DNA of 64,000 bases from Nemertoderma westbladi (lineage: Eukaryota; Animalia; Xenacoelomorpha): contig JAUCBJ010005335.1 in the NCBI GenBank assembly GCA_032718475.1, positions 2,112-66,111 on the forward strand. Direction: 5' to 3'. Shown one piece after another: positions 2,258 through 36,719 of this stretch. The notes beneath the pieces were generated by a model. It did no database searches, was not told the origin of the DNA, and saw only the letters and a program-made list of their open reading frames with translations. Within the stretch, counting starts at the first letter, position 1, and each line of letters opens with the position of its first letter. Both the position numbers and the translations under genes were made by a program.

Positions 2258-2268
2258 ATAACAGATAT
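2258..2268 (+). promoter_or_regulatory. Non-tRNA primer-binding site candidate ATAACAGATAT (self-priming type)
   Basis: Abuts the LTR end, lacks TGG, and is the exact reverse complement of LTR 1533-1543 (ATATCTGTTAT). Confidence 0.7.
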
Positions 2269-2602
2269 TTGGTTCTGATTGTGGTGTAGGCAATAAATAT
2301 AGTTTAATATTGTTTTTGGTAAAAACAATAACAGATATTGCTTCTGGATTGCGGTGTAAGCAATCTAGTCGAAAGTACCGGTCGACCGGAAACCTGTAGG
2401 CCTGACTGCCTGATCATCCGAACCGGTACTTCCAGCAGGTACAGCAGTATTATTCGATTTGATTATTATATGCCGGTAGGTCTTAATAATTAATCGGGGA
2501 TGCCTGGTTTTTATTGGGATTTTACTTAGGCCTATTTCTGTCAGTTTTATTTATTTGTAGGCCAGTATTGAGCAGAAGGCGTGTAAGCCTGCTCAGATTG
2601 TA

Positions 2603-3175: not shown

Positions 3176-4516
3176 TATTCAGAGTTTATGCTATTATTCG
3201 CAACATTCATATCCCCAAGTTTATTCCTACAGTAATTGTGTTTGTTATACATACCGTTATAGTTAAACTAACCCCGGTACTACATCAGGGCTGCTCGGCG
3301 TAGGTAAAGACTGGTGATTTTGTGCACCGGTCACTCCAGCAGATGCCGTGGTTCTTTTAGCTGTTCAAGTATTTTTAACTACTAATTATTTGTTGTACAA
3401 GTACTTGTACCTAATTTAGGGTTTAGTGTACAGTACTTTCCGAAGGTGATTAGTGTGTAGGCAGTATATTTGTGTTGTAAAGTGGTTAATAGGCACGTTG
3501 GTTCTGGTAGACCGCGGTAATTAATCTCTAGGTAGGGACACTCCGTGATACATAACGTAGTACCTATAGCGATATGGTTATAGGTCGTCAGGCGGTGGTA
3601 TTTTCCTATCTGGACAGCGCAGTATATTTACTACTACTTATTATTTTCAAATACCGTAGTAACCTGTCCGTTGTAATAACCAGATATTCTAACCCTTTGT
3701 TAGGCTGGTTAGTAGACTTCTTGTAAAATTACCCTAAAATTCGTATTTGTGTATTTGTAATTAAATTTTTGTGTTTATTTAGAGATTGTAATCTCAACCC
3801 GAATTGTACGTAATTTGTAGTATTAAGTAACTTAGGTAAATTAGAATTATTTGTTTTAGTGTCTAACAAGTAGCACTCCACTGAGAGCGCACAGCTTATG
3901 TGTAGTGACTCCCCCAGAAATAATAACATTTATTTCAAACATTAACAAAACCCATTAAACGGGTATATATATATTATAAATCAACTCAAACGATTTATAA
4001 ATAGTAGGCCTGCCATACAACAATTAGGTCTCAATATCAGTTGGACTACTGCTTAAATAACGGCAATAAAGTAAGTTAAAGTAACCAAGTAACCCTTAAA
4101 ATTCAGAAATTCAATTATTCTAAAATAATTGACATACCGGTATTTACAATAGGCTTATTATATTTATTTCTATAAATTTTAGGTTGAAATCATACTGGTA
4201 TTCTGTAATTAATTCTAGTCTGTAATTATACTTATATATATACATTATAAGTGTAAACTGCATACCGGTATCCACGATAGGCCTATTATATATTTATATA
4301 TATTTGTGCTAAAATTACCTACCGGTATTCTGTGATAAACTAGTCTGTAATAATACTTATATATACTATAAGCATACCGGTATACTAATATATTATATAT
4401 CACGCTACACTGAGTAGCAGTATCGGTAATTAATTACTAGGCTAGCAGTTAACACTGAATTACTAGACTTGCTTAGACTGTAATATAGCAGTAGACATTC
4501 AACTGTGTAAACAAAC

Positions 4517-7500
4517 ATGTCTGATACTAAGCGGAACCTGTCAGACAGTTTATTAGATGTAACTATCTGCGACTCAGATAGAGGTGTAGAACCGTCTAGT
4601 TCTAAGTTCAGTTCACCTCCCACTGTGAGGAAGGTCATCCCTCCATTAGTATTAACAGAACCTAGGCTGGTCCAACATCGTAGGTCTATCATAGGCACTC
4701 GAGCTCAGGTTAAGCGGGACCAAGAAGCAGCGGAACAGCAACAACCCGCAAGCCAAGAACTTATTTCTGAGCGGCCCGACAGCTCCAGTAGTGAAGATAC
4801 TGTAGAGCTGACACCCGAGCGCGGAGCAAGGATGACGGATGCGGTTTATTCGGATCCCCTTCTCATCCTTCCTGCAGCCGTACTCACTAGGTTATTGATC
4901 GCGGTGGAAGAACACCAGATCGATTGGGCGAGAAGTAAGCGATCAACTAAAGATAGTTATGAGGGATACACAAGGGAATAACTGAATTCTATGGTCGAGT
5001 CGCAATGGAACTTCCCCGGACCCAGACTCCCGTTTGATTTATCAGAAGCTGCCTGGGAAGACATACACCGGATGGGAGTAGCCAAGGAAACCATCGATCC
5101 AGCTGTGTGGAAGAGGTCCGCAGCCGGATACGCACAGGGATTCTTCAGCTCTATGGAGCGAGTAAAAGAACAACTGTTTCAACAACCTCAAGGACCTCAA
5201 GAGCAGGGACAACTGCTTTATCAAGTTAGAGAAAGAATTCTGCGAATCAGGCTAATATTATCAGCCTTTGAAGAGGCTTCTAAAAGAAGACAAGACACGT
5301 CGTTGCAAGTTGCCGTAAAGACTTGGTTTCAACGGGTGAGTCGCCAGGTTCAAGGAACAGCTCAGTGGAAAGCTCAGCTGGAGGAGCGCTCAACCCATGG
5401 AGAATCAACAGACGCTACTTTTTCCCAAGTGGAAAGTGAAGCGACGGCAGAGAAACCGCATAAGAGGGATGCCATTGACATCTATCTGTCAGACTATCAG
5501 CGTTTTTTGGGAGATGAAGAGTTGAGGAGAAGGCTAGATGGACTTAGCCCTAATAGTGAAGGAGCACAGCGTGTGCTTGACGCCATCGACGTGGATAGGT
5601 TAGCAGCGAACCAAGCTAAATTCGATGAACAACTCCGCATCGCTAGAGACCAAGAAGAAAGGGTGAAGAAAAAACGCATAGAAGACAGAAAGAAAGCAGC
5701 AGTAGCAGCTGCAGAAGCCGAAAGAGAAGCGGCAGCGGCAGAGGCAGAAGCGGAAAGAAAAGCGGCAGCGGCAGAGGCAGAAGCGGAAAGGAAAGCAGCC
5801 GAAATGGAAAGAAAAGCGGCAAGAGCAGCGGCAGAAGCGGAGCGGATAGCAGCTGAAGAGATTGCCCAATTAGAATTGGAAAATATTCAGGAGAATCAAG
5901 ACTGCATAAATAAACAGTTAACAGCTAGTAATATGCAGATGATGAATCGATCTACTCCCAAAAGACAGGGATATACATCATCTGAGGAAGGCGATACCAC
6001 CGATACTGAAGGCAAAGGAAATAGATCTCACCTAAGCAGACGCAAAAGAACATTCCACCGTCAGAAATTGCCTGATTTGCCTCCAGCTGTTAGAAGGCAA
6101 CTAAATAACACCAACTTAGGTAGTACAGAACCCACAGACCAAATAATTACAATAGAGAGACTCCCTACTATAGTAGATGAGCCTGAAATAATTAGGCCTG
6201 TTCCCGAAGCCACCCTTTCGGTCGTAGAGACACCTGTACTCCCTGAACCTACCTCTCAATTCCCTTTGCACAGCACTAAGCTACCTGTGCCCAGCAGAAC
6301 AGCCCATGAGACAGTTCATGCCCTGGACTCCGAGCGAAATATTCATGATTTGTCGCCCGTTGTCCCTCGTCCGCCCGCTACAACGTTGGCGAATCCCGCT
6401 TCGGTGGTCGAATGGGTGGATGAGAGACGACGGGGGATGGATCTCCTGCTCGGACAGATGCAGGAGACCGTTCAGCAATTCAAGGGCACAGTAAGGGAAA
6501 GTAGATTAGAGTTGCAAGAAGTGCAGCAAAGTATCGCGCTAGAACGCGATAAATTAGTAAATACACAAAAGGGTATACCAACACCCCCCGTAACAATGTG
6601 TCAACCTGTTAGGTCTGAAGTATCTCATGGCAAGGTGTGGAGCCTACACGCATCTATACTGCTAGCGAAGTAGAAACTCCTATAGTGAACCCTATTAAGG
6701 GTAATTATAGACCTGTTGATAATGATATTCCCTATAGACCGGATCATAATCCGATAAATTTATATACCGATAACTCGATATTAAATAACACGATGGCCCA
6801 AGAAAGTTTTACGCGTCAAATGGCTAGAACCGAAGCCCGGCAAGCGGTAAAGGTGGGAGAGATCGTCAAGTTCAATGGAGATGAGATGAAATGGTTACCT
6901 TTTAATGAATATTACAAAGATAACATACAGAACTCTGTGCTATCTAATGGAGAGAAACTTAGATTCCTCATCGAGTGCTTGGAAGGATCTCCCAAGTTAA
7001 TGGCGTTAAAGTTTATTGGACATCCAGACGGATTAAGACAAGTTTGGGATACACTAAACATCAGGTATGGTAATAGGAATAACATAGCTGGGTATTTGTA
7101 TGCAAAGTTGGTAGCGCCCCGAAAGTTTATTAGCAGCGGAATTATAGAGTTTTCCGATGAGATTCAGGAGATCTGCAGACAATTAGATTGGCTAGGTAAG
7201 TCTCATGAGTATCAGAATGCTATGGTTATTAGAGCAGTGGCTTCTACTTTACCGAAGGGTGGAGTAGGTACACGCTGGGATAAGAAAGTGTTATATATGA
7301 TGGAACAACAACGACGAGACCCTACCATGGCTGATCTCATGTCATTCCTAGATGGAGAAGTGAAATTACAGCTCCTGAAACTGTCCAGAGAGAAGACACC
7401 GGAAAACAAGGTAAGTGAAAAACCCGTCGCTAGGAGAAAGGTAACACCAGTGTGTTATACAGATGATGGCGAAAGCCAGACTTCTCAAGGAGAAGATAGC

Positions 7501-10500
7501 GGGAAAGACACTGACAGATCTTATTACGTAAATAAAATGCCTAAAGATCAGGTAAGTAAATTCAAGTCTCGAACAAATGACAGGAGAGAACAGGTAAGAA
7601 AAACTCCTCCTACGTCTCCCAAGAGAATTCAGGTGAGAAAGCCCGAAGAAAAGACAAGTGTACACAATGTTACTCAGAGTAAGGTAAGTAACATCAAACC
7701 GAAATGTGCACTATGTGATGGGACCCATCGCTTAAATATGTGTGATGAATTTCTAAAGAAATCATTAACTGAGAGACGTGAAGTCATGTGGGACAAGCGG
7801 TTGTGTTATAATTGCCTCAGACAAGGACACCAACGGCGAACCTGTTACTCTGACACAAGATGTGCCAAGTGCGGTGCGAAACATCATATCTTGTTGCACA
7901 CTGAATTCGAGCGAAATAGTCCGAGTCAGGTAAGTGATTCCGAACTACATGTCCAATTCAGTGATGTGAACGACACTGATCAATCTGAGATGGAAGGATT
8001 CTATACAGACGAGTTCTCCGACGAAAACGAATCCTGTTACACGATAAACACCACAGTGTATCGAGCACTCATTTATGAAAAAGATACAGACATTGACCTC
8101 GCTCTAACTACTTCTGATCGACAACCATCTTGGAAAGCGCCAACTTCCAATGTAGGGATTAGAGAATTTCCTGTGGTACAGGTAAGGGTCCACGGACCAA
8201 AAAGGAGTTATGTAGTGAACGCCCTCCTTGACTCCGGTAGTACAGGAACATTCATCGACAAAGAGCTAGCCGAGGACATATTCGCTGGACAACCCAAGTT
8301 CCGAACTAAGCTAAACATGTCAGGAATTATGCAAGTTTGGAAATCCACAGTAACAGCGGATTATATGTAGGTGCGTTGTCCACCCCCCAGGACGAACTAG
8401 GAGAACATAGCATAAGGTCAGTGAAAATGGTGGCTATAAAGAACTTCGCTACTACTCAAGCAGACCTTTATAATTGGGACGAGGATGAGAGCATCCAACA
8501 TCTTAAGATACCTCGATTCCAGACAGATTATCCTGGAGTGCAAATACTCATCGGTCAAAATGCGCATGAAGCGCTCGAGACATTGGAGAAACGACCTGCT
8601 CAACCGCAACCTCTACAAGTTTATGCGGGAAGAACTAGAGTAGGTTGGTACTTTACTGGCCCTTCCCGTAGAACTCTCATGGAAAGATTACCGAAAGATC
8701 AGGTATATCAAGCGCGAGAATGGGAAGTTGAGAACAGTGAGTTCGACGATCCAACTGAGGGAACTCCATACTCCTCAGACAACGACGATATACATCAACT
8801 CTTTGATGAGGAGAATGCCATCGATCTCCTTAAGGAAAGCGAGACTTGGCAAAATCAAGTGAACTTATGTCAACTCCTTCTTCCATCCGAGCGAGACGAC
8901 TATAACGACGAGCTTAATGACGTTATTGAACGTTATAATGCCAAGACTCGGGATGAACACGCCGTGAGATTCTTTACTCAAGAGGTCGTAGAGCCCAACT
9001 CCTACGATAAGGCCCTATCGGTGGAGGAAGAAAGAGCCAAGCAGATCCAAGCGACAACTACTCGTTTTCTTAAAGATCAAGGTAGATATGAGATCGGTCT
9101 TCCTTTCCGAAAGCGAGAACCAAAGTTCATTAACAACAGACCTTTGGCAGAGAAAAGAATTGCTCAACTACATCGACGCCTTACGGCAAATTCTTCAGCT
9201 AAAGAAATGTATAAAACACAGTTGAAGAAGTTTATTAGCAAGGGATATGCGGAGCTAGTACCGGAAGAAACCCCTATAACTGAGAGAACGTATTACTTAA
9301 CTCACCATTACGTTCCCAAACCCGGTAAACCCCATGAAGTACGAGTGGTGTTTGACGGTTCCGCCCTTTATATGGGCCAATCTCTTAATTCTGAATTGTT
9401 ACCCGGACCCAACTTACTCTAATCCTTGTTGGGAATACTATTAAGATTAAGACAATACTCCATTGCTTTCGCCTCAGATATAGAAGGCATGTTCTTACAA
9501 GTCAAAGCGCTGGATAGGGATCGAGATAGCCTACGATTTTTGTGGTGGCCTGAAGGAGACCTCAATAAGAAACCGGTGGAGTACTGGATGACCATCCAAG
9601 CTTTTGGGATAATCTCGAGCCCTTCAAACGCCTGTTCCGTGGTACGCACCACTGCGGATGACAACCGAGACGCCTTCTCTAAAGAAGTGATCGACAATAT
9701 CAAACGAGACATCTACATGGACGATAATCTAAAGTCCCTTCCATCAGTCGAAGAAGCCATTGAGGTCGCTAAAGGAACGGTAGAGTGCTTAAAAAGAGGT
9801 GGATTTCGATTAACTAAATTCACTAGCAACTCCCGTGAGTTTCTGGAGTCGATCCCGGTAGAAGATCGAGGAGCAAAAGACCTAGATCTAATAAAGGATG
9901 ATCTCCCAGAAACTAAGACCCTTGGTTTGAAATGGGACACAGAAAGAGATATCCTGTTTTTCCAACTAAAACAGCGAGATAATCCAGTTCGGACTAAACG
10001 GATATGTTTGAGTATCCTGAGCACTTATTTCGATCCATTGGGATTTATTAGCCCAGTTATATTGATTGCTCGGAGTTTAGTACAACAAATGTGGCTTGAA
10101 AACCACTCATGGGACGATCCACTTAAGGGAGAATTATTAAAGAAGTGGATGAAATGGGAAGATTCTCTACCAGCCATCGAAAACTTCATAATTTCCTGTT
10201 CATATTTTGGTCATGTTCTCCCTACGTATTCATATCAACTCCATGTGTTTGGAGACGCCAGCGATATGGGAATAGGTATAGTAGCTTACCTAAGGGTGGA
10301 AACTCCGGACGGAATCAAAGTTGCCTTGGTTACCTCTAAGGCATTGATAAACAACAAGTTGAAAGTTCCTCGAGCGAAGTTAAAAGCGGCTCTATACGCT
10401 ACAGCCATCGGCCGGAATGTAACAGAACAGATCGACTATCCCCTGGAGAAAACTGTCTATTGGACCGACGCTTTACTCGTGTTGGAGTATATAACCAATG

Positions 10501-12553
10501 AAGTCTGTCAGTTCAGCGTCTTCGTTACCAACAGAGTAGCTATTATACTCAGTCGCACGACGATGGATCAATGGAGACATTGCCCCGGAACGATTAATCC
10601 AGCGGACATCGCTTCCAGGGGAGCAACTCCACAAGAACTGGTAGATACTCCAGACTGGTTAGGTGGACCCGACTTCCTCTACAAAGAAGAAGAAGAATGG
10701 CCTCCTCATCTTACTACAGCAGAAATTAGACAGGCCAAGGGAGCGGAGAAAGTCAAACCTAAAACTCAGGCGAGTAAATCGAAGTTATTCAAACCCACAG
10801 TGGATCTGTCTGTACTACATACTTCCGGAGACGACGCTTTGGATCAGAAACCCACAGCCACAAATAAACCCATTGTGGAAATCCGTGATAAGGATTGGAA
10901 ATCTGGCATACCAGACGTCTCGCAAGGACTCTCACCCCTTCTGCAGAGAGCGATACATCACTACAGTTCCTGGAATCGGCTCTGTAAGGCCGTTACATAT
11001 TTAAAGAGATGTTTTCACCATCACTACTCTGGGATGAAAACAAAGGGTGATACCGCTCCAATCACATCAGTGCAGGTCCATGTTATTAAAGACCTTCCTA
11101 AGTATAAGGTACCCGACAAGTTTCTGAAGGAGAAGATCAGTTATCAGGAGCATGAAGAAACCAACAAACAGATGCTGAGACTCTTACAATGCTATGAAGA
11201 TTCCGATAAGTATTTCCTGTTGTTGAAAAATCCACAGATGCGCTTAAGGGATCGTTTCTCTAGCACAATGATAGATGGGTTGATACGTGTTGGAGGAAGG
11301 TTAACGAATGCCCCATTATCCTTTGATACTAAGTTCCCCATACTCATTAGAAATCTTGAAATACAAGTCAAGATGATTGTAGATGTTCACAGCAAACTTT
11401 ATCATGCTGGTAGAGAACGAGTTCTTAGCGAAATTCGAACTCGCTATTATTTTTATAAACCCCGTAGAGCTCTGAACCAAGTTCTTAGGAACTGTATACC
11501 CTGTAGGAAAGCATTCAGTAGTATTATGAACCACCCTTTACTAATACCGGTATGGATTTATTTGGCCCTATTGAAGTATATCGTGCTAGGACTATAGTCA
11601 AGAGATGGTGTGTAATCTTTGTTTGTATGACTTGTAGAGCCATCCATCTCGATATGGTGAACGATTTATCTACCAACAGCTTTCTATTAAGCTTACGACG
11701 ACAGATCGCTCGCTTTGGCACTAGTAACACGATGAGATCTGATAAGGGAACCAACTTCATTGGTGCCAACAATGAAATCAAAGCTTACGTCAAAGATTGG
11801 AACCAAAGACAGGTGGACGACCAACTACGAGTAACAGCGTCTAGTTGGACCTTCAACGCCGCCGACGCCCCTTGGTGGGGAGGAAGTTGGGAGAGATTAA
11901 TAAGAAGCGTGAAGACAGCATTTCATTTTATAGTGCCTTGCCGCGCTTATCTCACCGACGAACTTTTGCGGACGTTAATGGAAGAAATCGCCGCCTATCT
12001 CAACGAGAGACCGCTTATGCCAGTCTCATCGAGTCCCGATTCCCTGGAAGCGCTAACACCCGCGCACTTCCTACTGAAGAAACCTGTAGCCATGCTCCCA
12101 CAATCGGAAATCACAGACGGAGACGAATACTGCCGACAAACTTGGCAACTCATGCAGTTGTTATCCCGTCGTTTCGCTGACCATTTCGAAAAACATTATC
12201 TGCCCACGCTACAACTTCGAACTAAGTGGTTTGCGCAGCAAGAAAACGTCAGCGCTGGAGACATGGTGCTTATTGTCGATGTGGATCTTCCACGTAAGCG
12301 GTGGCAGACAGGTCGTATAATCGAGACGCACATCTCAGATGACGGTTTGGTGCGATCGGTAGAACTCGTCGTCATGCGACGTAACTTCAAGAAACCGGGA
12401 ATTGTCTTCGAGACGCAGCAGCTCAATCGCCCGGTGGGACGTTTATGTTTACTGGAAAGAGACAGAGAACTCTCCGGAAACTATGGGAGACAAGATACTC
12501 TTCCCACGACCACCTCCCTAATCCAACAAACATCTAGGGACTCCCCAACTTAA
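4517..12553 (+). pseudogene. gag-pol: BEL copy A gag-pol polyprotein, disrupted
   Basis: BEL gag (KFNGD...KLRFLIECLEG), triple knuckle (CALCDGTH..C, CYNCLRQGH..C, CAKCGAKH..H), protease LLDSGST, RT YMDD, RNase H LHVFGDAS/WTDA/NPAD, integrase GMDLFGP/SDKGTNF/GGSWERL. Stops at 4979 and 9420; frameshifts near 6630, 8345 and 11521 relative to copy B. Confidence 0.95.
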
Positions 12554-13420: not shown

Positions 13421-14183
13421 TTCAATGAATTTAATAAATTGTCATTTTGTACAATTTATAACATTCCCAAAATTCCATTAATTAATAGATCATGGGAGCG
13501 GAGATTCACTCTATTAAGTGTATTTGTGTGCGAGAATCTCCAATGTATAGTCAATAGCCGATAAAATTCATAGAATCATGTATAAAGGGGATATTGACCA
13601 TTAAAGAATTACTATTAAATAGCATCCCAGATCTGTATGCATGAGAATTACCCTAATTCTACCGCTAGCTTTCCATAATGTCACCATGGCAACAACCACG
13701 CTAGAATTAGAAGTGAGTTAAAAGAACAATAGAAGGCATGCCCCATTGAATAGCATAGGGAATAAATAGCGCACTGCTAGTATCCAAGGATACATAATAA
13801 ATACAGTGACATTCTGGAAGGTACTGACTAACGGACAAATGGCCCGAATGTGTGCAGTTTGTTGCAGTTGTGTTGAATTTGTGCGTTTGTAGGTGAATGT
13901 TACTACTAAGGTGTGTTTACAGTAGCGAGTCGCAATTGTGAAAGTAACCCTAACTCTCCAAGAAGAACCTGCAGTACATCTAAGCCTTTGGGACGGACAG
14001 TTAAGTGACTTGTGCCGGTTATCGTTGTCGTTGTGTAGCTACATCGTTGGCGAAAGCACAGCGACGACGGTACATCAGCGCTGAGGATCTTACACTGTCC
14101 GGGGGCAAAAGAGGGGTAGGCAGCGACGCCCGCTAGCCTAATATATATAAACTCATTATAATATTGATAAACTCATAGCAGAT

Positions 14184-17100
14184 ATGACTGAGTTGATAGA
14201 AGATGATCTTGGCATCAGGGAGCGATATACTCTACCTTTACAAGCGTTTGTCGATAGCTTGATACGCGGCGATGCTGGTCCAACTACTACGGAGGATGAT
14301 GGTCGTTATATCGAACCGCTAATGTCCCCGGAGCAACTTACGCGTGAATTGGACTATAGAAAGTTCACCGCTCGCTATACGCATCGTAATGGTACGTATA
14401 TGGACTTCTTAACCACTGGCCATCCTATCGATTTACACGACACGGACGATGTGGATACCGAAAGGGAAATGGTTTTATTTAAATATCATACCCAGCGGAA
14501 TCGGAACGATAAGCCAAGAATAGAACACGAGAACTCTATTCGAAACAGACTCGAAAGAGAAGACGTTGAAGAGCCGGATAAACGTAACGACTTCAACGAT
14601 TATCTGGAATTCTTGAGAGAAACATACCTCAATATTGCCAGTCAACAGAATCTCGAAACTCGATATCCTCAAGGTATATATCATAATCCTATGATAGAAC
14701 TCAAACGACTCTATTTCACTATGATGTATCTTACCGCCGATCGACCGCTACCCGTTGTCCCGGATAGCTTCGAACAGATGGAGGAATATTGTAAAACTGG
14801 AGAACGATCACCCGCGTTTCCTCTGCAAGACATGCGTCTTTGGTATTACTGCGACGAATGCCCTAGACCCAATCAGCAAACGGAAAGACATAAACATCCG
14901 CGGAGACGTTGCGCTAAACACAGTTTTACACGATATACTTACGGGAGTTTCGAGCGAAACCTGTTCGACGTGTCCCCTGCGGTCGCTCGACTCAAGCGAT
15001 CCTTGAACAAACCGATGATCAGAGTTCCGGAATACTCGGTCAGACCTCCGCATTCCTCAGTTAGACCTCAAACTCTTGACCCTAATAGTATCACGGATCC
15101 TCCCGAACTGTACTCACTGTTCAAAGATCTAGTGTTACCCGAACAGTTGATCGGTGGCACTCCGGTAGTAGGCTCACGAGACATTCGCCAACCCTACCTA
15201 GCTGGATTGGGACGTGGTCATCTAATATCACCATTTAACCCATACAACCGTCCCGGCTTCACCTCTATCCAACCCGTTACGGAAGTCGAAGAGAGCGTCG
15301 TACGAAATGCATTAGACGCTATTTGGCAGAAAATCGGAAAGGGAACGTACGATTGTTTGGAGAAGCGTAAATTGCAGCAACAAGTCCAAGCGGTGAAGGA
15401 ATTAGCTTTACCCCAGTTCGATAGAGAAATACAAAATCTCGAGGAGGACATCGAACGTGGAAGAACCTACTCTTTACAAGAGTTTCTAGATGAGCGTCTA
15501 CAACAACAAGCGGAGGAGAATCAGCTCGAGGAGAGACATATAGAACTGGATGAGAGAGAAGAAGCGGCTTTAGCTCAACCCGAAGTGCAAATCCTTATGA
15601 CGGATCTCTACTCTAAAACCATTCTTCATCCCTCGATGGCTCCCCATTTCGGAGACAAACTTTTTGCGACGGCACAACCCCAACCGGTTGATATCAACCT
15701 AAGATCTCGCGATCTTATCGCCGACGCTCCTCTGTTGCAGCGTCCGCCCATCGAACCCGCTCGTGTCGATGGTATACTCGTTGAACCTCCGGACAATAGA
15801 GCAGATCTTGTCCGTCGCATGGTACACGATGTAAACATACGCGCTAGACCTTTACCGGACTCGTTTTATGGGATCAAAGATCACCCTTATTACGTCAATC
15901 TAAAACAATATTACATGGTAAAACCGGAAGATCCTACACATAGTCTGAAGTTTCTACCGTTAATAAATCCTCTCGATATTGTCGAACTCGAACAACTGCA
16001 GAAACATCTGGATCAGTTAGTTAAAGTAAACTCGTTTTGAAAACCATATAATGTTTCCAGGATAGAGAAAGAAACAATACCTCCGTATAATCTTGATGGA
16101 TTCATCAAAACTCGTTTAGTGCACTGGAATCTTGATGTGTTATTCGAGGAGGAAAGAATACAACAATATGGAGATGTGGAAACATATACCACACAATATT
16201 TAAAGTATAAAGACCTGCCTAATGCTAGCGAATGTGCTACCTTGTGGCATCCTGTGGGAATGACACTCGAAAACGCCACTAAAGAATAGAACGAAACTCT
16301 TAACGTTATCGAGATGTATGGAGTTGTCACTTATGATAACAAAGGTAGCGTTCCGGTTGGAGAACTTGGAACTACGCGGATGATACATATACGAGGACTC
16401 GCTGGTTCTACCCACGTATTTACTCGAGCGTGTTCCGACGTTATTGATTATTCTTTTGAAACTCTTACTGAGATACAAAAGAAACTCCGACATGGACAAT
16501 TTGAACTCGCGCAGCGTTACGTCACCGACACCGAGCGCAAGCCGGCCATGGGTATCGATGGATCGATGTTACCCCAACCCGTGCTCGAGATGCTGTTTAA
16601 CGAAGGAATCCTTAAAATCGGCTCAGCTGTTTATGGAGACCTACAGAACGACTTTCGGAATATGGAGAACATTCCATACCCCTTCGTTGATACTCAGCTG
16701 ATTGCTCCTTGGGCAGAAGGCCGAGGTTTCTTCCGCACTACGTATGCCAATACACCCAACGGAATTACCAAAGTACAACGAACCTCCATTGGACATCTTG
16801 CCTTTCAAGAATACGGATGGAATTTCAAGGTTGGAAATCCTATAAATTACCAACAAGTATACGGAGATCATTATTCTCGTTTATACTTTGATGGACCATT
16901 GACCGCACCTGGCGCCGTGTATAGCTTTATGAGTGTTCCACTTCGTCCCTCCTTAGCCATATACACGATCTTTGAAAACGCAGCACTTGCCGGTTGGCTA
17001 GCCGATGTGTGCAGTCGTACCATACGCGCCCATCCCTTAATACTTGGAACCAAACTCACCAAGTTAGATGAACACAATAAATTCATACGCTTTGAATGTT

Positions 17101-18437
17101 TCAGGCGCTTTCTGACTCCGTTCCGTAACGTTGATAGTCAGTTCAAGGACTGCGCTCTGACCAAACTCAGCCTGAGAGACTCGGCGGCGGAGAAGCTAAA
17201 CAGCGCGGGATTTGCCCTTTTTCAGGACGTTTGTATACAGAACTTGCACTCATCTGTTATACAAAGACCCCGAATACCCACGGGTTATTCTGTCGTCGAA
17301 GTTCAGACAGTGGGTCCGCTTGCGGAGACAGCCGCACCTACCTCAGCTATGCAATTGGAAGACGAACCAATATGCTTAGAAGCTGAAGCGATTCAGCCTA
17401 CAGCGCCCCGGAGCAGCGATAACGACTACGTCTTAGAGTGGTATCAAGGTCCATAATGTCTCACCGCATACGATTATCGACACGCTAACTATGTTTCTCG
17501 AAAACGTTGTCGATTATGCGCATCGAGAGACCATTTCACTCCTATGGACTCAGACGTACCCTGTTCCTATTTCCACGAACAACCAATGATGGAGATATAT
17601 TGTGCGTATTGCAGACTTAATAACTCTCATATTTTTGCAGTCTGCCCCCAATTTATGACTCAATGCCACCACTGTCAACTTAAAGGACATGCCAGTTATA
17701 ATTGCCCCTTTAATCACGATTTAGAGAGCGTAGATGAAATGATTACCCTTCGCTACATCCGAGCTTGGGAAGCTAACGCGGATTTACACTGTGAGTCCCG
17801 TCATCGATACTACCCTGGACGCTCTTACGAGGGAGTTTACGCGTTCCATCCTTATTTATTAGCGTCTGTGGAACAAAAAACACGCATACCGAGTTACGAG
17901 CTAATGAAGCGTGTTGGTGAGTGTATTTCCACTAAATTTGTTAGAAGATACCTTAGAAACGTCAATCCTAACGATATTACTTCATACCATTTGATCAATT
18001 ATATCCGTCAAGACCCTGAGTATGGCGATTTATTTATCAACTCGCACCCTGAGTTACAGGAAGTATCTCGACGGCCCTACGAATATCGAGCCCGAGAACG
18101 CGAGCTGGAAAGAACTATTAAACCAAGGAAGTTTCTCACCACTCACGGTCCGCCTACCGCCATTGCCCAGACAACCCGTCAAGGACCCGTAGGAGCTGCT
18201 GTCCTGAGGCGCGCCCTAAAGGCTGTTAGACCTTGCTCCACGGAAGTTGATATCGATCAACCAGGTACCTCGACCGGCGGATACACCGATCGCAATCCGA
18301 AACCTTCTGATGCAATTGTATTGCACCCTTCACCCAGGAGTTACAGCCCTCCTAGTAAAGTGGCTCGCCCCAAAGAGAAAAGGACTCTTACTAGCCTCAA
18401 AAAACTGCGTAAACGCCGTCCACGTAAGAAAGACTAA
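14184..18437 (+). pseudogene. Extra (non-env) ORF of BEL copy A, ~1417 codons: Cys/His motif, coiled coil, DEDDy exonuclease-like domain, CCHC knuckles, basic tail
   Basis: ORFs 14184, 16314 and 17544 share one frame, broken only by single stops (TGA 16038, TAG 16287, TAA 17454). The last stop is CAG in copy B. N- and C-terminal parts are conserved in copy B. Confidence 0.88.
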
Positions 18438-18503
18438 CTGTTTAGAGTATTTTTATATTTTAGAAACTGTGATTTGTTGTATTTTATAGACTTAAATCCC
18501 ATT

Positions 18504-18515
18504 TTCTGGGAGCGG
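18504..18515 (+). promoter_or_regulatory. Polypurine tract (..TGGGAGCGG) of copy A
   Basis: Immediately before the TGT of the 3' LTR; identical in copy B (45241-45252, minus). Confidence 0.8.
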
Positions 18516-19671
18516 TGTAAAAGCTTTTGCGTAATTAACCGGTTATTTTCCCTTAAAGTACTCTGTAGTTGGTTTACCAGGCATAAAAAGGCCGTGTCCT
18601 TGCTGTACTGGTGTTTTAGAGGACATAAAAGTCATTTCCTCTGTATTTGTACTTTAGAGGACATAATCCGCAATCTCGTGACGCGATAAGCTAGATACTC
18701 TTGAAAACAGTGTCGCTACCATGACGACGGCTAACAGCTGATATTGCCACGTCGACATTTCTTTGTTTCTTTGTTCTCTCGTTGTTCGGTTGACCAATCA
18801 GAGCGTTTTTTGTCTCTGTGTTGGAGGTGGATACAGAACTCAGTAGTTCAGTGTTATGTTTTTGCCCAGAGCCTAAGAACACCGGCTTTTGGCACCTCCG
18901 TGTTTCAGTCTTTAGTCTTACATTAGTAGGCTTAATTATAGAACGTATATCTGTTATCTAACCAAACGAGCTACTTACTTACTCACTCACTATCCATAAA
19001 TTACTAATATTACTGCTTTTGCTGTCGGTTATTCATTATATTTGTTGATGAAATATTATATCGGAATACTGATCAATAGTCAGATACCCCACCTTCTTGA
19101 TATACTAAAGGTTAGAGAGACCGGTTACAGATAAACGATTGCGACCTATGTTAAGTGGTTTGAAGTGAATCTAATGCTATTTCATATGCCCGACATAAAT
19201 TATATGTTGCTCTCTTTATACGTGACCAAATTTAGTGAAGGTCGGCAGATTAGTGTGCAGTATTGTGCAGCATTGTGTATGAGTGTAACTGATAACAAAG
19301 CATCTCCTAAAGAATGCGCCATATACGTGAATCTATAGCCTTTTCGTTGTGTCTAGTTTAAGCCATAACTCTGTTTACATATTTAGAGCGCCACGTCCTA
19401 AAAGGAACTGTTAATATTTCCCGAAAGTGAATAATATTTGTCAGAGATTATATATTACGATCAGTCGAATAATACAGTAGGCTTACACCATCAATCATTA
19501 AGCTCCGAACTCAGTCTCCCGGGTATATCCAACGGGTGAATGATTGCGCATAGACTGGCTTCGGCTAATGTAGTGTATCAAATACTCGTCATAGGCTAAA
19601 GACTATCTATCATCCAAAAGACATTCTAATTTTGGCAGGTTAAACTGTCAAAGGTCTTAAAAGCGCAAACA
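18516..19671 (+). repeat. 3' LTR of BEL copy A
   Basis: Direct repeat of 1102-2257, followed by TSD GGTCC. Confidence 0.96.
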
Positions 19672-19676
19672 GGTCC

Positions 19677-20893
19677 AGCTTAACAAGCAACCACGTGACG
19701 AACAAGTCTCGGCATTTTTTGGCTACTGCACACCTCTGCTTTTGTCTAAGATGGAACACGTGGTACACGTTCCACAAGACACTGACCTCTGTTTAGAAGA
19801 ATTTTTGGACATGTTCGAAACATATCTACGAGGTAAACAGAATGTCTCCTTGGATCGGTTGGAGCTTACCTTATGCCGACAACAAGACGGCGAGAGTTTC
19901 GATGACTTCTATACCCATCTATGCGAATCTGCTGCTACAGCGGGGTTACGTTCCATGGGGCACGATGAGTGGATGTCAACCTTAATAACTGTCGGCATAC
20001 AAAATGAAGAAATTCGACAAGATTTATTGGGTAAATTTCCGGCATTGAACCACGATGAAACCGTAAAATTTTGCCGCTGTGAAGAAGCTGCAAGAATACA
20101 TCGAGTCAAGGTGAAAAATGTACTGGCTGGGTCGAGTAATAAATCTTCAATGTTGACAGCTGCTTCATCCACAAACCAAACTACTGGTAAGAAAAAATAT
20201 AAGGGCCGATATCGATCGAAGAGCAGGAATAGGAACCCGTCAAGTTCACGAGGCCCTCAAGCGGATTCCTGCACTAAATGTGGTTACGATAAACACTATG
20301 GTGGCAAGGAGTGCCCGGCAAAGGGAAAAACGTGCTCATACTGTCACAAATCCCATCACTTTGCACAAGTGTGTCGAAATAAATCGAATTTCGGCAGTAA
20401 TAACCGGAACCGTAGCAGTTCTCCAAAACCCTCATCCGCCATCCACATCGCCATGGTTAGGCATTCCGCTACTCCATACGTCTCAGTAACGTTATTCGAC
20501 CATGTAACAAAGAAGTCAGTTGGAGACCAATCTGCAATTCCTGATACCGGTTCCCAGTGTACCATCGCCGGTATAGAGCTGCTCCATAACCAGGGAATTG
20601 ACATCGCCAACATTAATCCACCCAGCGAGGAGAAACTGGTGAGTGTAAATGGGAAAGTATTAAAACAGTTGGGTTGTATTACATTTTGTATAGTTCTAGA
20701 AGGTAGACAGGTTATTGAGGAAGTAAAAATATGTCAAGATGTTGAATTTATGTATCTGTCCCTCAATACATGCAAAAAACTAGGTATTGTTCCTTGGAGT
20801 TTTCCAAAACCCCCTCCATTATGCAGTGAAATGAGAACTGCGACTCACCTATGCTCTGGTTGTCAATCTAACTGTGTACACCCAAATTTATAA
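19677..20893 (+). pseudogene. gag: G1 gag C-terminal part and aspartic protease
   Basis: RQQDGESFDDFY gag motif, Mag-type knuckles CTKCGYDKH...CPAKGKTCSYCHKSHHFAQVC, and protease motif PDTGSQC. Confidence 0.88.
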
Positions 20894-20899
20894 AGGGAT

Positions 20900-23372
20900 C
20901 TCAACCTATTTTTGTACAAACCTCCCACACAAAGTGGATAAATAACTTACCTAAAAATCCTTCCGACAATGAAATAACAAATATTCGCGAGGAGTTAATT
21001 AAACATTATACAACGGTTTTTGATTCAAATATTGAACTGTGGAGCATGGTAGGCTCTACTATTGGTGATCCCATGAGGATCGAGTTAAAAGCGGATTTTA
21101 AACCCTTTGCAGTTCATGCAGCTCGATCTATTCCCTTTGCAAGGAGGGAGCAAGTGAAGAAGGAGCTGGATGACATGGTTGCTGGTGGTATAATTGAACC
21201 AGTCGGTGACCGCCCCACCGAGTGGTGCCATCCACTCGTTGTGGCAAATAAACCTAACGGAGGGATTCGAATGTGTGTGGATCTCACAAACCTTAATAGA
21301 CAGGTAAAGAGGGTAATCCACCCAACAAATCCACCTCTTAATGTTGTAGCTGACATTTCCCCAACATCCAAATATTTTACCGTCTTAGATGCCAAAAAAG
21401 GATATTGGCAAGTCGATCTACACCCAGAAGCTAGAGACCTGACCTGTTTTATAACGCCCTGGGGACGGTTTATTTTTCTCCGTGCACCTATGGGTTATAT
21501 TAATACCGGAGATTCTTATAATTTAAGAAATGATTTGGTATTGTCAGATATAGAAAATATTCACAGACTGGTGGATGACATTTTGGTTGAGGATAATGAT
21601 TTTAAGATACATACTGACAGAATATGTACTGTTCTAGAACGTTGTGCCAAACACAACATAACATTAAATGTGCAGAAATTCAAATTTGCTAAAAGTGAAG
21701 TCAAATTTGCTGGATACATAGTCACTGATTGTGGAATTAAGGCTGACCCCAATAAAGTGGATGCAATATCACAGTTTCCAACACCCACTAATCGATCTGA
21801 ATTGAGATCATTTATGGGACTGGTCCAGCAATTGGCCCCCTTTTCGAATGAAATCAGTAGTGCTGCTAGTCCTCTCCGTGATATAATGAAGATGAGGAAT
21901 GATTTTATTTGGACTGAAAATCATAAAACTGCATTTAATGAGGTTAAAAAAGCCCTTGCAGCCCCCCCCTATTTTAACAACATTCAACCCAAAATCAGAG
22001 ATAGTATTAGAAACTGATGCGTCACGTACCAAAGGTCTAGGATTTGCAAAAACTAAACTATTCAGACAGTTTTAGATTACTTCAATGCGGATCTAGATTC
22101 CTCACCGAAGCGGAAACTCGATATGCTACTATTGAGTTAGAAGCCCTCGCAATCTTGTGGGCGACTCGTAAATGCAGAATGTATTTGTCTGGTTTACCCA
22201 ATTACATAGTAGTCACGGATCACCGCCCCCTCTTGCCGATTTTTAATACTCATACTCTTGATATGGTGGAAAATGTCCGAATTCAGAATTTTAAAATGAA
22301 ACTTAGCGAATATAATTTCAATTTAATATGGCGAAAAGGGAAGGACCACTGTATCGCCGATGCTCTTTCCCGTGCCCCCGTTTCAGATCCTGACATGGAG
22401 GACGAAAATGAGGGGATAATAATGAAGAATATTTCTGCCATTGCTATACAAGCTGCAGTTACAGCCTTAGATGACTCAGAATTTAATCGATCGCCGCCAT
22501 ATGTTGATCCTATTCTAGAGAAAATTAACAACGTTGCCACAACTGATGAGGATTATCAGGCTCTAATTAATGCTGTAAAATCTAACTTCACACTCCCATT
22601 TACTAATAACTCGTTTGTACAACAGCTGAAGGGTACATGGAATGAATTGTCTATAGACGATAACCTTGTCATATTTGGCCGACGATTAATTATTCCTAAA
22701 ACACTCCGTAAAGAGGTCATTGACCGTTTACATGACTCCCATCAAGGTATTGAGCGGATGAAGCGACGATCACGTGAATCAGTTTACTGGCCTGGAATCA
22801 ACAGTGACCTCACTAATAGAGTCAGACAATGTTCTAAATGTCAAGAACGGTTGCCTAGCAACCATAAAGAAACATACTTTGCTGATCCCCCACCATCTAG
22901 AATTTTTGAATCGGTTTCTTCAGACCTCTTCTACTATGGTGGAAAATGTTATCTTACATACGTGGATAGACTCTCAGGGTTCCCATTCATAGCCAGATGG
23001 GCATCCGACCCATCGGCCTCCCAGGTTATTGCACAGGTCCGTCAATATTTTGTGCAAACCGGAGTACCCGTTCGCATGCGTTCGGACGGGGGGCCCCAAT
23101 ACCAGTCCAAAGAATTTCGCCATTTTCTTTGTCGCTGGGGCGTTCGTTGGGAGCCATCCACACCATACTACCCCCAATCGAATGGACATGCTGAGGTTAA
23201 TGTGCGGATTTTGAAAAACCTCGTGGCCAAAGCCGATGACGGGCGTATAGACACTGAACCGTTTTTACGTGGCCTTCTAGAACTTCGGAATTCTCCAAGA
23301 ATAGATGGCTGTTCACCTTCCCAAATAGTTTACGGCCACCCGCTCCGTTCACAGGTTCCAGCACACTACAGA
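20900..23372 (+). pseudogene. pol: G1 pol (RT, RNase H, integrase), frameshifted
   Basis: RT: RMCVDL, LDAKKGYWQ, RAPMG, LVDD. RNase H: YATIELEAL, VTDHRPL, IADALSR. Integrase: HDSHQG...CSKC, SSDLF, SDGGPQY, SNGHAE. Frame breaks near 20890 and 21970-22044. Confidence 0.92.
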
Positions 23373-23374
23373 TT

Positions 23375-23830
23375 AAATATTCTGTTGTTGTGATAGACAT
23401 CGTGCATGATTTTTGATACCTCCAATTTATATATACTATCAATTGGGAGAATGTTTAAAGTCTTATACAGTGTTTTGGAGGATGCTTGCCGGTGGCTATA
23501 TGTAATTGCCCTTAAAATTTTATTTAACTCTTATCCGTAGTGGTTTTATCACATTATTGGATGAATAGATCCAAACTGCTAAACTGTATAGGATATATGG
23601 GTGAATAAGAGCAAAGTACAACATGTGCATAATATGTTCTGAAAAAACATAACGAAGCTTATAGAACAACCCAACAAATTTTGATATCTTCTTATTAATG
23701 TATTCGAATGCGGTTTCCAAAATAATTTACTGTCAATAATCAATCCAAGATATTTTGTTTCTGAAGTTTCTTTAACTACTGTATTATTCACTATACTGTA
23801 TACTGTGGGATCCACATTGCACATTGCACA
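23375..23830 (-). mobile_element. LINE fragment (post-RT region, CR1/L2/Jockey-like)
   Basis: ETKYLGLIIDSKLFWKPH followed, frameshifted, by LYKLRYVF...LYFALIHPYILY...W. Confidence 0.75.
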
Positions 23831-26179: not shown

Positions 26180-26313
26180 CTCTTACCGCGTAAATATAAG
26201 TAAAAGATAGTTCCATCACCTCACCATAACCTGAGCCTACCTACTGAATCTGCTATACTGCTATACTACTGAGTTATACTGATTATCATAAGACTGTTAT
26301 TTGTTTATATTGG

Positions 26314-29300
26314 GTGGTGATGTCACAGATGCTGCATTGGTGCTGCCAGTGCGCAGCTGGTGGCTGCGGTCCCACTAGTCGATGTGGGTGTGTTCGCGCA
26401 AATCGCCAGTGTACCCGGTGTGTCCCAATGGAAACTAGCCGGTATAATAACCCGGTCGTACCTCCCTCATTGCCCACCACCATGGCAAACATTGTATTTG
26501 ACGATTCACTGTCTTGGTCCGCCACTTCAACGCCTTCGTTGAGTGAGAGCAGTGACTCGGAGTTGGACACCACTGTAGTTGAGCGGTCGTCTGCCCCACT
26601 GGCGGTGGCGTGTGGCACGGACTTCATCCCTCCGCCTCCTTCCAATTCCGACCATTTGGAAGCCACTTTCGGCGGGTCCTTGCTGAATACTCAGGGTTCT
26701 TCACCCGACCCTACATGGGAGAGTCATCATCATCGCCTATGTCGTCTACCAAACCGCCGCTATATTGTCCCTGGAGGCAATGTTGGACGCAAGATGGTTG
26801 ATGACATAACAAAGGAGCTGGCAAAACTGTGTGAAGGAGGTTATCCTTCAGAACAACCTCTTTGCTTCGTCGCTATGATTTTTCAATGTGACCCGGATGT
26901 CGTGAAGACCCCAGATGTGCGGTGTACCCTCCTAAGGCGATTAGATACGTGAGAATGGGGTGACTTTGGGCCCCTACTTGTTGAGGCCGAGTGGTGCAGT
27001 AGCAAATTCGTGACTGGAAGGGGTGCAACTTCTGGGAACACATACCGGGTCTACAATCGAAAGGTCCTCGCCAACATGAACCGGTCAGCTGTGCGGAAAG
27101 TCACAGATCGTGACTGTGGAGGTGTTCTCAACCCCGAGGACCAAGCTGAGGGTCAGCCGCTAGGCGTGACCGTACGAGATGGTCTGGAACAGAAACACCC
27201 TCCACAGATGGATGTCTCCCCTGACAGTTTTGAACCTTGCAGCGATTTACCCCCACTCGAGGGCGTTGATGTGACTGGACAGCTCATCCTCAAGGCGGCG
27301 CGAGCTCTGTGCGGTTGTGCTGGCCCTGTCAGAGGGGACGGTGAGTTCTGGCACACACTGCTGACTCGATACCAGGCCCATAGTGCGCGGTTGCGTGAAG
27401 TTGTGGCTGGGTTGGCACGACGTCTGTGTAACACCATTGTACCCTGGGGGGAGATTCGTGCGCTTCGAGCATGCCGATTGGTTGGATTGGACAAACAGCC
27501 CAGGGTCCGTCCGATTGGCGTAGGGGAGGTTCTCTATAGACTCCTCACAGTCAGCATGGCGATGGCAACAAAGACTGTTGTTGTAACTCAGTGCGGTGCA
27601 GACAAATTGTGTGCCGGGGTGAAGGCCGGAATAGAGGGCGCTATCCATGCAATGGTCTCGATATTCGATGATGAATCCACCGAGGCCATGATTCTAGTAG
27701 ACGCCCGCAACGCATTTAACAGCCTCAGCCGTCCCGTGATACTGTGGAATTGCTGAGTACTCTGGCCGAGATGTTTGAGGTTTCTCTGCAATGCATATAA
27801 TGGTCACGCCGCACTGTACCTCGCTGGCAACAACCCACCACTGTGGAGCAGAGAGGGTATGATGCAGGGAGATACACTCACTATGCTGGTGTATGGATGT
27901 GGGTCCCTGCCTATGGTACACTCCCTACACTGTGAACCAGTATTGGCTTCCTCAGATTCGTCTCTCAATTCGCGCACCATCACCCATAGTCCATCTGACA
28001 GTGTATCTCTCAGTGGTGCCCAGGAGGGTTGCATTGCCCAGGAGGGTCACTCCGCATTTTCCCAGTCCATCCCCTTGCTGTCCCAGTTTACTCCCACAGT
28101 ATTCAGTCCCTTTCCCGCATTGTCCCAGTCCAGCCCCATGCTGTCCCAGGTTACTCCCACAGTATCCAGTCCCTTCCCTGCATTGTCCCAGTCCACCCCC
28201 ATGCTGTCCCAGGTTACTCCCATAGTAGCCAGTCCCTTCCCCGCATTGTCCCAGTCCATCTTCATGCTCTCCCATGTTACTCCCACAGTATACAATCCCT
28301 TCCCCGCATTGTCCCAGTCCATCCCCATGCTGTCCCAGATTACTCCCACATTGTCCAGTCCCTTCCCCTCATTGTCCCAGTCCATCCCCATGCTGCCCAA
28401 GGGTACTCCCACAGTATCCATTCCCTTCCCCGCATTGTCCCAGTCCATCCCCATGCTGTCCCAGGTTACTCCCACAGTATCCATTCCCTTCCCAGCATTG
28501 TCCCAGTCCATCCCCATGCTGTCCCAGGTTACTCCCACAGTATCCAGTCCCTTCACCTCATTGCCCCAGTCCATCCCAATGCTGCCCCAGGTTACTCCCA
28601 CAGTATCCAGTTCCTTCCTTGCATTGTCCCAGTCCTTCCCCATGCTGTCCCAGGTTACCACCACAGTGTCCAGTTCCTTCTCCTCAATGACCCAGTCCAT
28701 CCCCATGCTGTCCTATGTTACTTCCACAATGTCCAGTCCCTTCCCCGAATTGTCTCAGTCACTCCCCATGCTGTCCCAGGGTACTCTAACAGTGCTCCCG
28801 CTCACTCTCATGGTGTCCCTGTCCAGTCCCTTCCCCGCATTGTCCCAGTCCAGTCCACAGGGGTCGCGAGTTGGTTCCACAGTGCCCCACACCCAGGGAT
28901 CATCATCAACTCAGTGCTGGTAAGCGGATGACGCCTCGGCGGCAGGGAGTCTGCGTGGAGTTGCACAGTGGCAGCTAAAGGGCCCCAAAATTGGCTACTT
29001 CCCCGAACCGATCAAAACTTACCTGGTAATAAAGCCAGGACTGGAGGCGGAAGCCAGGGAAAGGTTCGATGGGAGTGGCGTCCAGATAGTCACCGGACAC
29101 CGGTTCCTGGGGGGATATATCGGCGATGCTGATGCTGAGGGACGGAACCAGGTTGTGTCGGACAAGGTTGCGGGGTGGGTGGAACATATCGAAAAACTCT
29201 TGGAGGTTGCCATGGAGTATCCCCAGACTGCTCACACAGGGATGTCCAAGTGTGTGCAGGCTGAATGGGACTTCCTAATGTGGGTAGTCCCAATGGATGT

Positions 29301-30300
29301 TGAGGATTTTGCCCCTATCCAGACTGCGCTGCTTCGACAGTATATCCCCTCCCTGTTCGGTATCCCATTGGGCCCCTCGGTTGAGGACTTGGTCCTCCTG
29401 CCTGTTCGCCATGGTGGGATCGGGTTGTGGGACCCCCTAATGCGGTTTGGCCATGCCCATGCTGCGTCCACCGAGGGGACTTCCCTTGTGGTTGAAACTA
29501 TCCAGTCTGGTCTGCTGCTTCACGTGACCGACCACACTGTGCGGCTGCGTAAAGTCCTCACTGAGTCGCGGGCCGCCCAGGATACCGTGTAGAAGATGAA
29601 AATGGAGTCGGCGCTCGGGGCGCTACCAGCCGAGCGTCAGCGAACCACGGAGCGGACGAGGCGGAACAAGACCGGGGGATGGTTATCGGCCCAGCCGTCC
29701 GATCTGGACAACACAGACTTGGGGCCTGACAAGTTCCGGGACAATCTCGCCCTTTTCTACCAGTTAAGTGCGAGGGGTGCGGTCGCCCATTCAGCACCTC
29801 CCACGCACTGAGCTGCAAATCCGGGGGTCTTGCCATCAAACGTTATGACGAGGTTGGCCAGGTGTTTGGCGACCTCTTGGCCTCGGCTTTCGGCCAATCA
29901 AGTATCGAGCGTGAGGTGACCCTCGCCCAAGGATACAATGACAGACAGGGGAGTGGCATCGTTTGACATTGCGATAATCAACGCTGATGCCAGCTCGTAC
30001 GTCCAGGCCAACCGGTCGACCAAGTCCCTCTTGGAGCAGTGGGCCCGGCTGAAACGCGCGCATTACCGGACCGTCTGCGAAGACCGGAGGATGTCCTTTA
30101 CCCCACTGGTCGGTACAACCGACGGTGTATGATGCAATGAGGCAGAGATTCTCGTTCGCCATCTGGCTGAGACCCTTGTCTCGAGACAAGCTGGGATGGC
30201 TGAGAGGAGCCTTGCCTGTGTGAGGGTGGAGTTCGCCGGAGGCTTCAATTTGCTCTCCTCCGATCGAATTCCCTCTGCCTCAGGGGTGGTCGATGGTTTT
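26314..30300 (+). pseudogene. CRE-like ORF: Cys-rich CXC-like N-terminus, RT, C-terminal RLE-type region
   Basis: CQCAAGGCGPTSRCGCVRANRQCTRC, LVGLDKQPRVRPIGVGE, GIEGAIHA, VDARNAFNSLSR, GMMQGD, QCW*ADD (YADD mutated), LPVRHGGIGL, and FDIAI...KRAHY...FTPLVGTTDG. Confidence 0.85.
28052..28880 (+). repeat. 63-bp minisatellite (3 x 21-bp subunits), ~13 units
   Basis: Unit CCCTTCCCCGCATTGTCCCAGTCCATCCCCATGCTGTCCCAGGTTACTCCCACAGTATCCAGT. Confidence 0.95.
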
Positions 30301-31435: not shown

Positions 31436-31485
31436 TCGCATTTAAGATTTGAGGCACTCCTAAAGTCTCGAGTTTTAGGTTTGAG

Positions 31486-32138
31486 CCACAGACTATGCCT
31501 CACTGAGGCTTAGAATATGCCTCACACTGAGGTACTGATGCACAGACTAAACCTCACTGAGGCTCAGACTATGCCTCACTGAGGCACTGAGGCACAGACT
31601 ATGCCTCACTGAGGCACAGACTATGCCTCACTGAGGCACAGGCTATGCCTCACTGAGGCACAGACAATGCCTCACTGAGGCACAGACTATGCCTCACTGA
31701 GGCACTGAGGCGCAGTCTATGCCTCACTTAGGCATTGAGGCACAGACTATGCCTCACTGAGGCGCAGACTATGCCTCACTGAGGCACTGAGGCGCAGACT
31801 ATGCCTCACTGAGGCACTGAGGCACAGAATATGCCTCACTGAGGCACTGAGGCATAGACTATGCCTCACTGAGGCACTGATGCACAGACTAGGCCTCACT
31901 GAGGCACAGGCTAGGCCTCACTGAGGCACAGGCTATGCCTCACTGAGGCACAGACTATGCCTCACTGAGGCACAGACTATGCCTCACTGAGGCACAGACT
32001 ATACCTCACTGAGGCACTGAGGCGCAGTCTATGCCTCACTGAGGCACTGAGGCATAGACTATGCCTCACTGAGGCACTGATGCACAGACTATACCTCACT
32101 GAGGCTCAGACTATGCCTCACTGAGGCACTGAGGCATA
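31486..32138. repeat. 22/30-bp palindromic minisatellite, left part
   Basis: Unit GCACAGACTATGCCTCACTGAG with an optional extra GCACTGAG. Confidence 0.95.
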
Positions 32139-36718: not shown

Positions 36719-36719
36719 A

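Follow-up and report, generated by a model that had tools for sequence, protein, structure and literature searches.

Does the exonuclease-like sequence that lies inside a long retrotransposon of Nemertoderma westbladi belong to a genuine gene of that element, and if so, what might its product do? The sequence occurs in a window of 64,000 nucleotides (assembly GCA_032718475.1, contig JAUCBJ010005335.1, positions 2,112 to 66,111 of the forward strand), and all positions given here are those of the window. An earlier note, prepared from the letters of the window alone, had assigned the sequence to an extra open reading frame of a BEL/Pao element and had compared it with the DEDDy 3'-5' exonucleases of the WRN, EXD2 and RNase D type.

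The retrotransposon holding the domain is about 18.6 kb long and is, by its coding content, a BEL/Pao element, because it carries DUF1759, a protease, Peptidase_A17, an integrase zinc finger and DUF5641 together with YMDD and DAS motifs. These features were recognized in the translations of a gag-pol region of BEL/Pao type (4511 to 12553, + strand), in which the order gag, aspartyl protease, reverse transcriptase, RNase H, integrase is present; the Pfam E-values are 6e-11 for DUF1759, 1.5e-34 for Peptidase_A17, and 1.8e-20 for DUF5641, and the reverse transcriptase motif YMDD and the DAS motif are found at 9714 and 10254. The 5' long terminal repeat (LTR; 1102 to 2257, +) and the 3' LTR (18516 to 19671, +) are 99.8% identical across 1,156 nucleotides. 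Comparison of the flanks reveals GGTCC directly outside both LTRs (1097 to 1101 and 19672 to 19676, no strand assigned), which constitutes a 5-bp target-site duplication. The LTR identity and the presence of GGTCC on both sides imply that the insertion is recent. The gag-pol of this copy (copy 1) is broken by stops at 4979 and 9420 and by frameshifts near 6650, 8340, and 11560. The LTRs, the Pfam domains, and an additional frame at 14151 to 18437 thus bear out the earlier assignment to a BEL/Pao host with an extra open reading frame. The gene order and family-specific Pfam domains are those of the Belpaoviridae, whose size range in the ICTV profile is 4.2 to 10 kb (PMC8742986). The present element differs in being about twice the upper size, and in having a third gene that is not env-like and has no transmembrane stretch.

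Several other features of this region and of the rest of the window were observed. A gag leader of about 700 codons, which contains an Ala/Glu-rich repeat and has no clear family match, precedes DUF1759 (4511 to 6673). A primer-binding TGG does not directly follow the 5' LTR in either of the two family copies in the window (2258 to 2290; about 58630 to 58700), and the first TGG in copy 1 occurs 12 bases past the LTR. The BEL/Pao element abuts a Gypsy-type gag-pol with reverse transcriptase, RNase H, and integrase (19676 to 23393, +), and probably was inserted into this adjoining element. Farther along, a decayed frame resembling a non-LTR reverse transcriptase (26248 to 29592, +) contains 11.8 in-frame copies of a 63-bp unit (28052 to 28793) that encode a Ser/Pro/Thr-rich repeat; two pieces of this frame were scanned and gave no Pfam match. 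A Gypsy element at 31485 to 37322 (-) has open gag-pol frames, and both of its ends consist largely of 22-, 30-, and 52-bp tandem repeats.

The third open reading frame (ORF3) comprises 1,428 codons as a whole frame, or about 1,420 codons when counted from its first ATG (14184 to 18437, +). In-frame stops are present at 16038, 16287, and 17454, and the motifs of interest are in the third piece of the frame, a stop-free segment of 388 codons (16290 to 17456). The intact protein would be large, with charged and probably helical stretches, and with the exonuclease-like domain in its middle followed by three zinc knuckles, a layout that the earlier note had not recognized. Its first 630 residues have no family match. 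No transmembrane stretch was found in ORF3 (peak 19-residue hydropathy of 1.19), and there is no Pfam match to env. The stop at 16287 is not common to family contigs from four sequencing runs, and the stop at 17454 is missing in a second copy of the family, which was found by comparing the window with itself (44037 to 59913, -; 83 to 89% identical). Between copies 1 and 2, ORF3 has dN/dS ratios of 0.08 over 121 codons, 0.07 over 323 codons, and 0.05 in the part with the knuckles; these values cover the parts common to both copies and so leave out the exonuclease domain, which copy 2 lacks. They are similar to the values of 0.03 to 0.08 for pol between the same two copies. Judged by these substitution ratios, the third gene of this BEL/Pao family is under purifying selection, even though it is broken in copy 1. 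ORF3 is therefore a real, selected accessory gene.

The candidate DEDDy-like 3'-5' exonuclease domain, of the WRN/EXD2/RNase D type as judged by profiles and a distant relative, occupies 16320 to 17000 (+) and contains two insertions. All five motifs listed in the earlier note are found in a single frame on the + strand: VVTYDNKG starts at 16323, LPQPV...YGDL at 16569, FVDTQLIA at 16683, SIGHLAFQEYGWNFK at 16785, and VPLRPSLAIYTIFENA at 16935. The conserved core (16569 to 16697, +) reads LP...ILKIG...GDL...VDTQ and is matched by every profile; its putative ExoII Asp (16638) aligns to the ExoII position of RNase D, and the Asp of DTQ is at 16689. The elements LP-x-L-x3-ilKiG-x5-DL, DTQ, and, in the likely ExoIII register, PL-x6-Y-x3-acid are shared, with canonical spacing, with the WRN-exo/EXD2/Mut-7/RNase D group (PF01612). 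The domain departs from this group in its two long insertions (78 and 91 residues, vs 35 to 36 and 48 to 49 in bacterial enzymes), in a Glu at ExoIII, and in scoring below all curated cut-offs. Also, no HRDC domain is seen, and zinc knuckles follow instead.

In an exhaustive search of 1.84 billion representative proteins with phmmer, a single relative appeared: P0001 (E 4.5e-5), a singleton of 648 residues with 30% identity to the window domain in an alignment of 150 columns. Its motifs are SIDVE, GSNIKADL, LDTQ, and YIYCEN, so that D-x-E, the ExoII Asp, DTQ, and Y-x3-E are all intact, and three knuckles are also present. P0001 matches PF01612 weakly (E 0.039) and can be aligned with the motifs of bacterial DEDDy domains from one end to the other. 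The distances from LP to the ExoII Asp (23), from there to the DTQ Asp (17), and from Tyr to the acid (4) are equal in the window domain, P0001, and a bacterial WRN-like protein. Word-indexed protein searches revealed no further relative, either with the window domain against longer proteins (0 of 6,515 candidates), with P0001 (only itself among 7,995), or with a profile of the two sequences (0 of 4,219).

The domain reaches no curated cut-off. Pfam gives no match for the window domain, and the only NCBIfam matches are the RNase D models TIGR01388 (E 0.015) and PRK10829 (E 0.04). Profiles were made from 33 bacterial PF01612 domains that were fetched independently of the query, as a hand-picked subset with subtype labels of our own. 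The profile built from the 21 non-polymerase domains places the window segment first, at 17.6 bits, and P0001 second, at 14.6 bits, in a set of 631 real entries plus 2,631 decoys, of which the highest scores 8.9; for each of the two sequences, none of 1,000 shuffles reaches the score. The significant part of this match is confined to residues 95 to 141, the central 47 residues that hold the ExoII-DTQ core. Among subset profiles, the WRN-type profile (four sequences) gives 15.8 bits, and the RNase D profile (14 sequences) gives 7.0 bits, a score exceeded by 1 of 1,000 shuffles. The DNA-polymerase-type profile (12 sequences) leaves the window segment at background (149 of 1,000 shuffles). Thus, under our own subtype labels, the K-x-G signature of the domain scores best with WRN-type sequences. 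The profile of the window domain and P0001 retrieves RNase D (E 1.3) and EXD2 (E 2.1) as two of five matches in the PDB, and hhalign pairs it with E. coli RNase D at 73% probability over 48 columns; run against the chromosome of E. coli, where RNase D is encoded, this profile gave no match. When 301 bacterial genomes were searched, 22 had a match at E <=1, and the best of these, with E 6e-4 per genome or about 0.18 overall for the 301 genomes, falls within a PF01612 gene.

Other searches were less informative. Two weak matches from a single-sequence PDB search are unrelated, PHROGs contains no match for the window domain, phage tblastn gave one match with an E-value of 8, and domain searches of viral, metagenome, and genome contigs found no locus. 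AlphaFold models of the domain have pLDDT values of 33.6 and 32.3, and Foldseek and VIA-align were uninformative with the second model. The DnaQ-like fold proposed in the earlier note is thus a prediction from sequence profiles. Perhaps the likeness is partial or due to chance, such that only a 47-residue core is DEDDy-like and the remainder is another fold or a remnant. The sub-threshold library scores, the pLDDT values of 32 to 34, and the ambiguous ends of the domain would suit this explanation. However, five different searches converge on one family, and P0001, itself alignable with the motifs of bacterial DEDDy domains over their full extent, shows 30% identity to the window domain, so a partial or chance likeness is very improbable. 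From this convergent sequence evidence, each line of which is sub-threshold, we infer that the domain is a DEDDy homologue of the WRN/EXD2/RNase D type, as the earlier note had supposed.

The likely ExoI motif is at 16320 to 16343 (+), with Asp at 16335 and the second position at 16341. This register is chosen because 16320 narrowly ranks first in ORF3 with a matrix of 33 bacterial ExoI words from which the second-acid column was omitted (8.7 vs 8.3), and because the site is conserved among copies. Of 15 variable places in 16300 to 16420, 12 are third codon positions, and a reading by hand with the genetic code makes these 12 synonymous. Two other placements were rejected. YVTDTE at 16512 has the top score when all columns are used, and leaves no room for two strands before LP, and the MAFFT placement at 16437 has no acid pair. 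In the N-terminal part, the pairwise score against P0001 lies within the range of shuffled sequences (4,376 of 5,000 shuffles). In the likely register, D-x-E is not present in copy 1, the canonical residue is read at 16341 in other copies, and P0001 has an intact D-x-E. The sequencing depth with another letter at 16341 is 80,417 of 80,534, 82,714 of 82,714, 581 of 581, and 15 of 15 in the four runs (37, 28, 6, and 3 contigs, respectively). Because nearly all depth differs from the window at this position, the non-canonical residue is private to copy 1. The earlier note had offered either a pseudo-nuclease or a decayed copy as the cause of the altered ExoI, and of these two, decay of a single copy is the one supported.

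The likely ExoIII motif (16938 to 16979, +) aligns to PL...Y...EN of P0001, with Tyr at 16962 and Glu at 16974 in the same Y-x3-E arrangement. The fourth metal ligand would then be Glu, not Asp. An alternative register (16896 to 16937), which a bacterial matrix prefers (12.7 vs 7.2), has no acid. Either the Glu or the acid-less register makes activity less than certain, and we consider exonuclease activity likely at a little over an even chance on the basis of the motifs. Alternately, the protein might be a pseudo-nuclease comparable to Egalitarian or EXD1, in which the fold is kept and the protein binds RNA with its knuckles for packaging, transport, or shielding of element RNA. The ExoIII residues, the long insertions, and the large size of the protein with its charged, probably helical stretches are consistent with this possibility. 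In contrast, both ExoI positions are kept in other copies, and P0001, although just 30% identical, retains all four acids and the Tyr with equal spacing; such retention would be difficult to account for if no metal site were present. A pseudo-nuclease seems less probable than an active DEDDy enzyme, and is a close rival to it.

A low-complexity linker joins the exonuclease-like domain of ORF3 to three predicted Cys/His zinc knuckles (17508 to 17705, +; starts at 17508, 17601, and 17664; zf-CCHC_3 E 0.005). P0001 and ORF3 share this exonuclease-linker-triple-knuckle layout. The P0001 knuckles match retroviral nucleocapsid chains with an E-value of 1e-4 and give a weak match to Air2 (E 0.064). 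When metagenomes were scanned with the window integrase, 318 pattern matches were obtained, one of which, L174, is a relative: a distant BEL/Pao element with an integrase 26% identical to that of the window and a DUF5641 match (E 9e-8). The same integrase found no match in viral contigs. Downstream of its integrase, L174 contains a match to the knuckle module of P0001 (E 8e-7), and, even when taken alone, the non-cysteine segment that follows these knuckles matches between L174 and P0001 (0 of 3,000 shuffles). With a profile of P0001 and L174, the two ORF3 sequences of the window (E 1.4e-4 and 2.9e-3) rank above a gypsy gag-pol segment (0.031). The post-knuckle segment of the window, taken alone, is not significant against P0001 (2,983 of 3,000) or L174 (628 of 3,000). 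L174 also has an ExoI-like word and the later motifs in the right order, spread across frameshifts, and the candidate exonuclease domain there gives no profile match and is not distinguished in pairwise comparisons (140 to 2,000 of 2,000 shuffles). These sequence comparisons show that distant BEL/Pao elements have the predicted knuckle module in common, and they suggest that the nuclease may be common to them as well. From them, we also infer that P0001 is derived from a BEL/Pao-type element.

The earlier note had regarded absence of the domain from all other family members as evidence against its proposal, and the domain is present in many of them. Contigs from four runs of four studies cover all 30 bins of 13800 to 18700, where one run possibly has the same source as the window and another (X5) is filed under a different organism label. 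In copy 2, about 2.8 kb of ORF3 is missing, and with it the entire exonuclease domain; the junction is near 46390 and shifts the frame. The corresponding joint (14552 to 17357) recurs in runs X4 (depth 2,918) and X5, and further deletions across the domain are found in runs X1 and X3. Because domain-less copies have spread, the ORF3 domain is not needed in cis, and this spread fits action in trans. Copy 2 is flanked by a 519-bp direct repeat that is 99.6% identical (43502 to 44020 and 59913 to 60431) and has no short target duplication; aberrant integration, recombination, or an assembly effect are candidate causes. Its integrase (about 49350, -) is missing some 60 bases, among them the first catalytic motif.

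The closest cellular types, Mut-7/Nibbler, EXD1, and EXD2, handle RNA ends, and several of them act in small-RNA pathways. CCHC knuckles bind RNA in single-stranded form and deliver the 3' end to a two-metal site, as in the case of Air1/2 and Rrp6. In this TRAMP/exosome system, CCHC knuckles are paired with a DEDDy nuclease, and ORF3 would combine both in one transposon protein; the likeness drawn here is one of architecture. By analogy, the knuckles of the ORF3 protein might hold single-stranded RNA, its DEDDy site might remove nucleotides from the RNA 3' end, and the protein might be supplied in trans to copies that lack the domain. The most likely targets would be host small silencing RNAs or their precursors, which is the weakest step of this scheme. 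Such targets are favored because cellular enzymes of this type work there and because the polymerase-type profile finds no match. The explanation that we tentatively prefer, at somewhat less than an even chance, is that a selected third gene, broken in copy 1, encodes a zinc-knuckle-guided 3'-5' exoribonuclease that acts in trans, most likely on these host RNAs. A bolder form of this explanation, which we regard as doubtful, is that ORF3 is an old, unreported accessory gene common to BEL/Pao elements with just 26% integrase identity, whose knuckles and active DEDDy nuclease destroy or mis-trim host piRNAs or siRNAs, and thus is a silencing suppressor that defective copies use in trans.

An active exonuclease might instead serve the element's own cycle, by trimming the 3' end of element RNA or of a tRNA primer, or by removing mispaired ends during reverse transcription of a long genome. 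RNase D trims the 3' end of tRNA, and the library models that the window domain matches best are those of RNase D. The resemblance of the P0001 knuckles to nucleocapsid knuckles also suits such a role, as does the unusual length of 18.6 kb against the 4.2 to 10 kb of the family (PMC8742986). Moreover, nidoviral ExoN is tied to genome growth (PMC7968707), and 3'-end processing of element RNA is proposed in PMC5408684. However, most BEL/Pao elements lack the domain, and deletion copies have spread, which supply in trans would permit. Also, the polymerase-type proofreading profile is at background. A role in the element's own cycle appears less likely than action on host small RNAs, and is a close rival to it.

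DEDDy frames are already known from other retroelements. In bdelloid rotifers, the Juno and Vesta LTR retrotransposons and the Athena/Terminon elements carry a DEDDy ORF3 with the motif DEED and untested function, according to PMC5408684, in which there is neither a clear link of such ORFs to copy number nor a clear departure from neutrality. Rotifer DEDDy ORFs are also described in PMC5718144, PMC6431247, and PMC6338049. As described in PMC5408684, Juno, Vesta, and Athena resemble the present element in that a DEDDy/RNase D-like third ORF follows pol, its catalytic residues seem intact, and its acid motif varies. Their ORFs were not among the sequences recovered by the protein searches made here. 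They differ from it in that the host here is BEL/Pao and the exonuclease is in the middle of a protein of about 1,420 codons with three knuckles; also, comparison by these descriptions gives a likely D-E-D-E here and DEED there. A nematode precedent mentioned in the earlier note was not encountered in the literature searched; the word 'nematode' is absent from the available text of PMC5408684. Similarly, 'exonuclease' is absent from the available text of PMC3118150, a survey of BEL/Pao elements, and of PMC554778, on Sinbad, and no BEL/Pao case appears in the available parts of PMC11662393, PMC3315495, and PMC7968707. Thus, in the literature searched, we found no report of a DEDDy third ORF in BEL/Pao elements; an earlier mention may exist, for instance in Repbase or in supplements.

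If the predicted homology is correct, ORF3 extends nuclease capture by retroelements to BEL/Pao, in this case with strong purifying selection on the third gene, and adds to the known kind a predicted RNA-binding knuckle module that is common to distant elements. The ways in which animal retrotransposons counter small-RNA silencing are little understood, and the rotifer DEDDy ORFs are not known to have been assayed. With P0001, a naturally intact relative, the putative enzyme can be tested directly. If unrelated retroelements have captured 3'-5' nucleases repeatedly, this would indicate a common pressure on RNA 3' ends.
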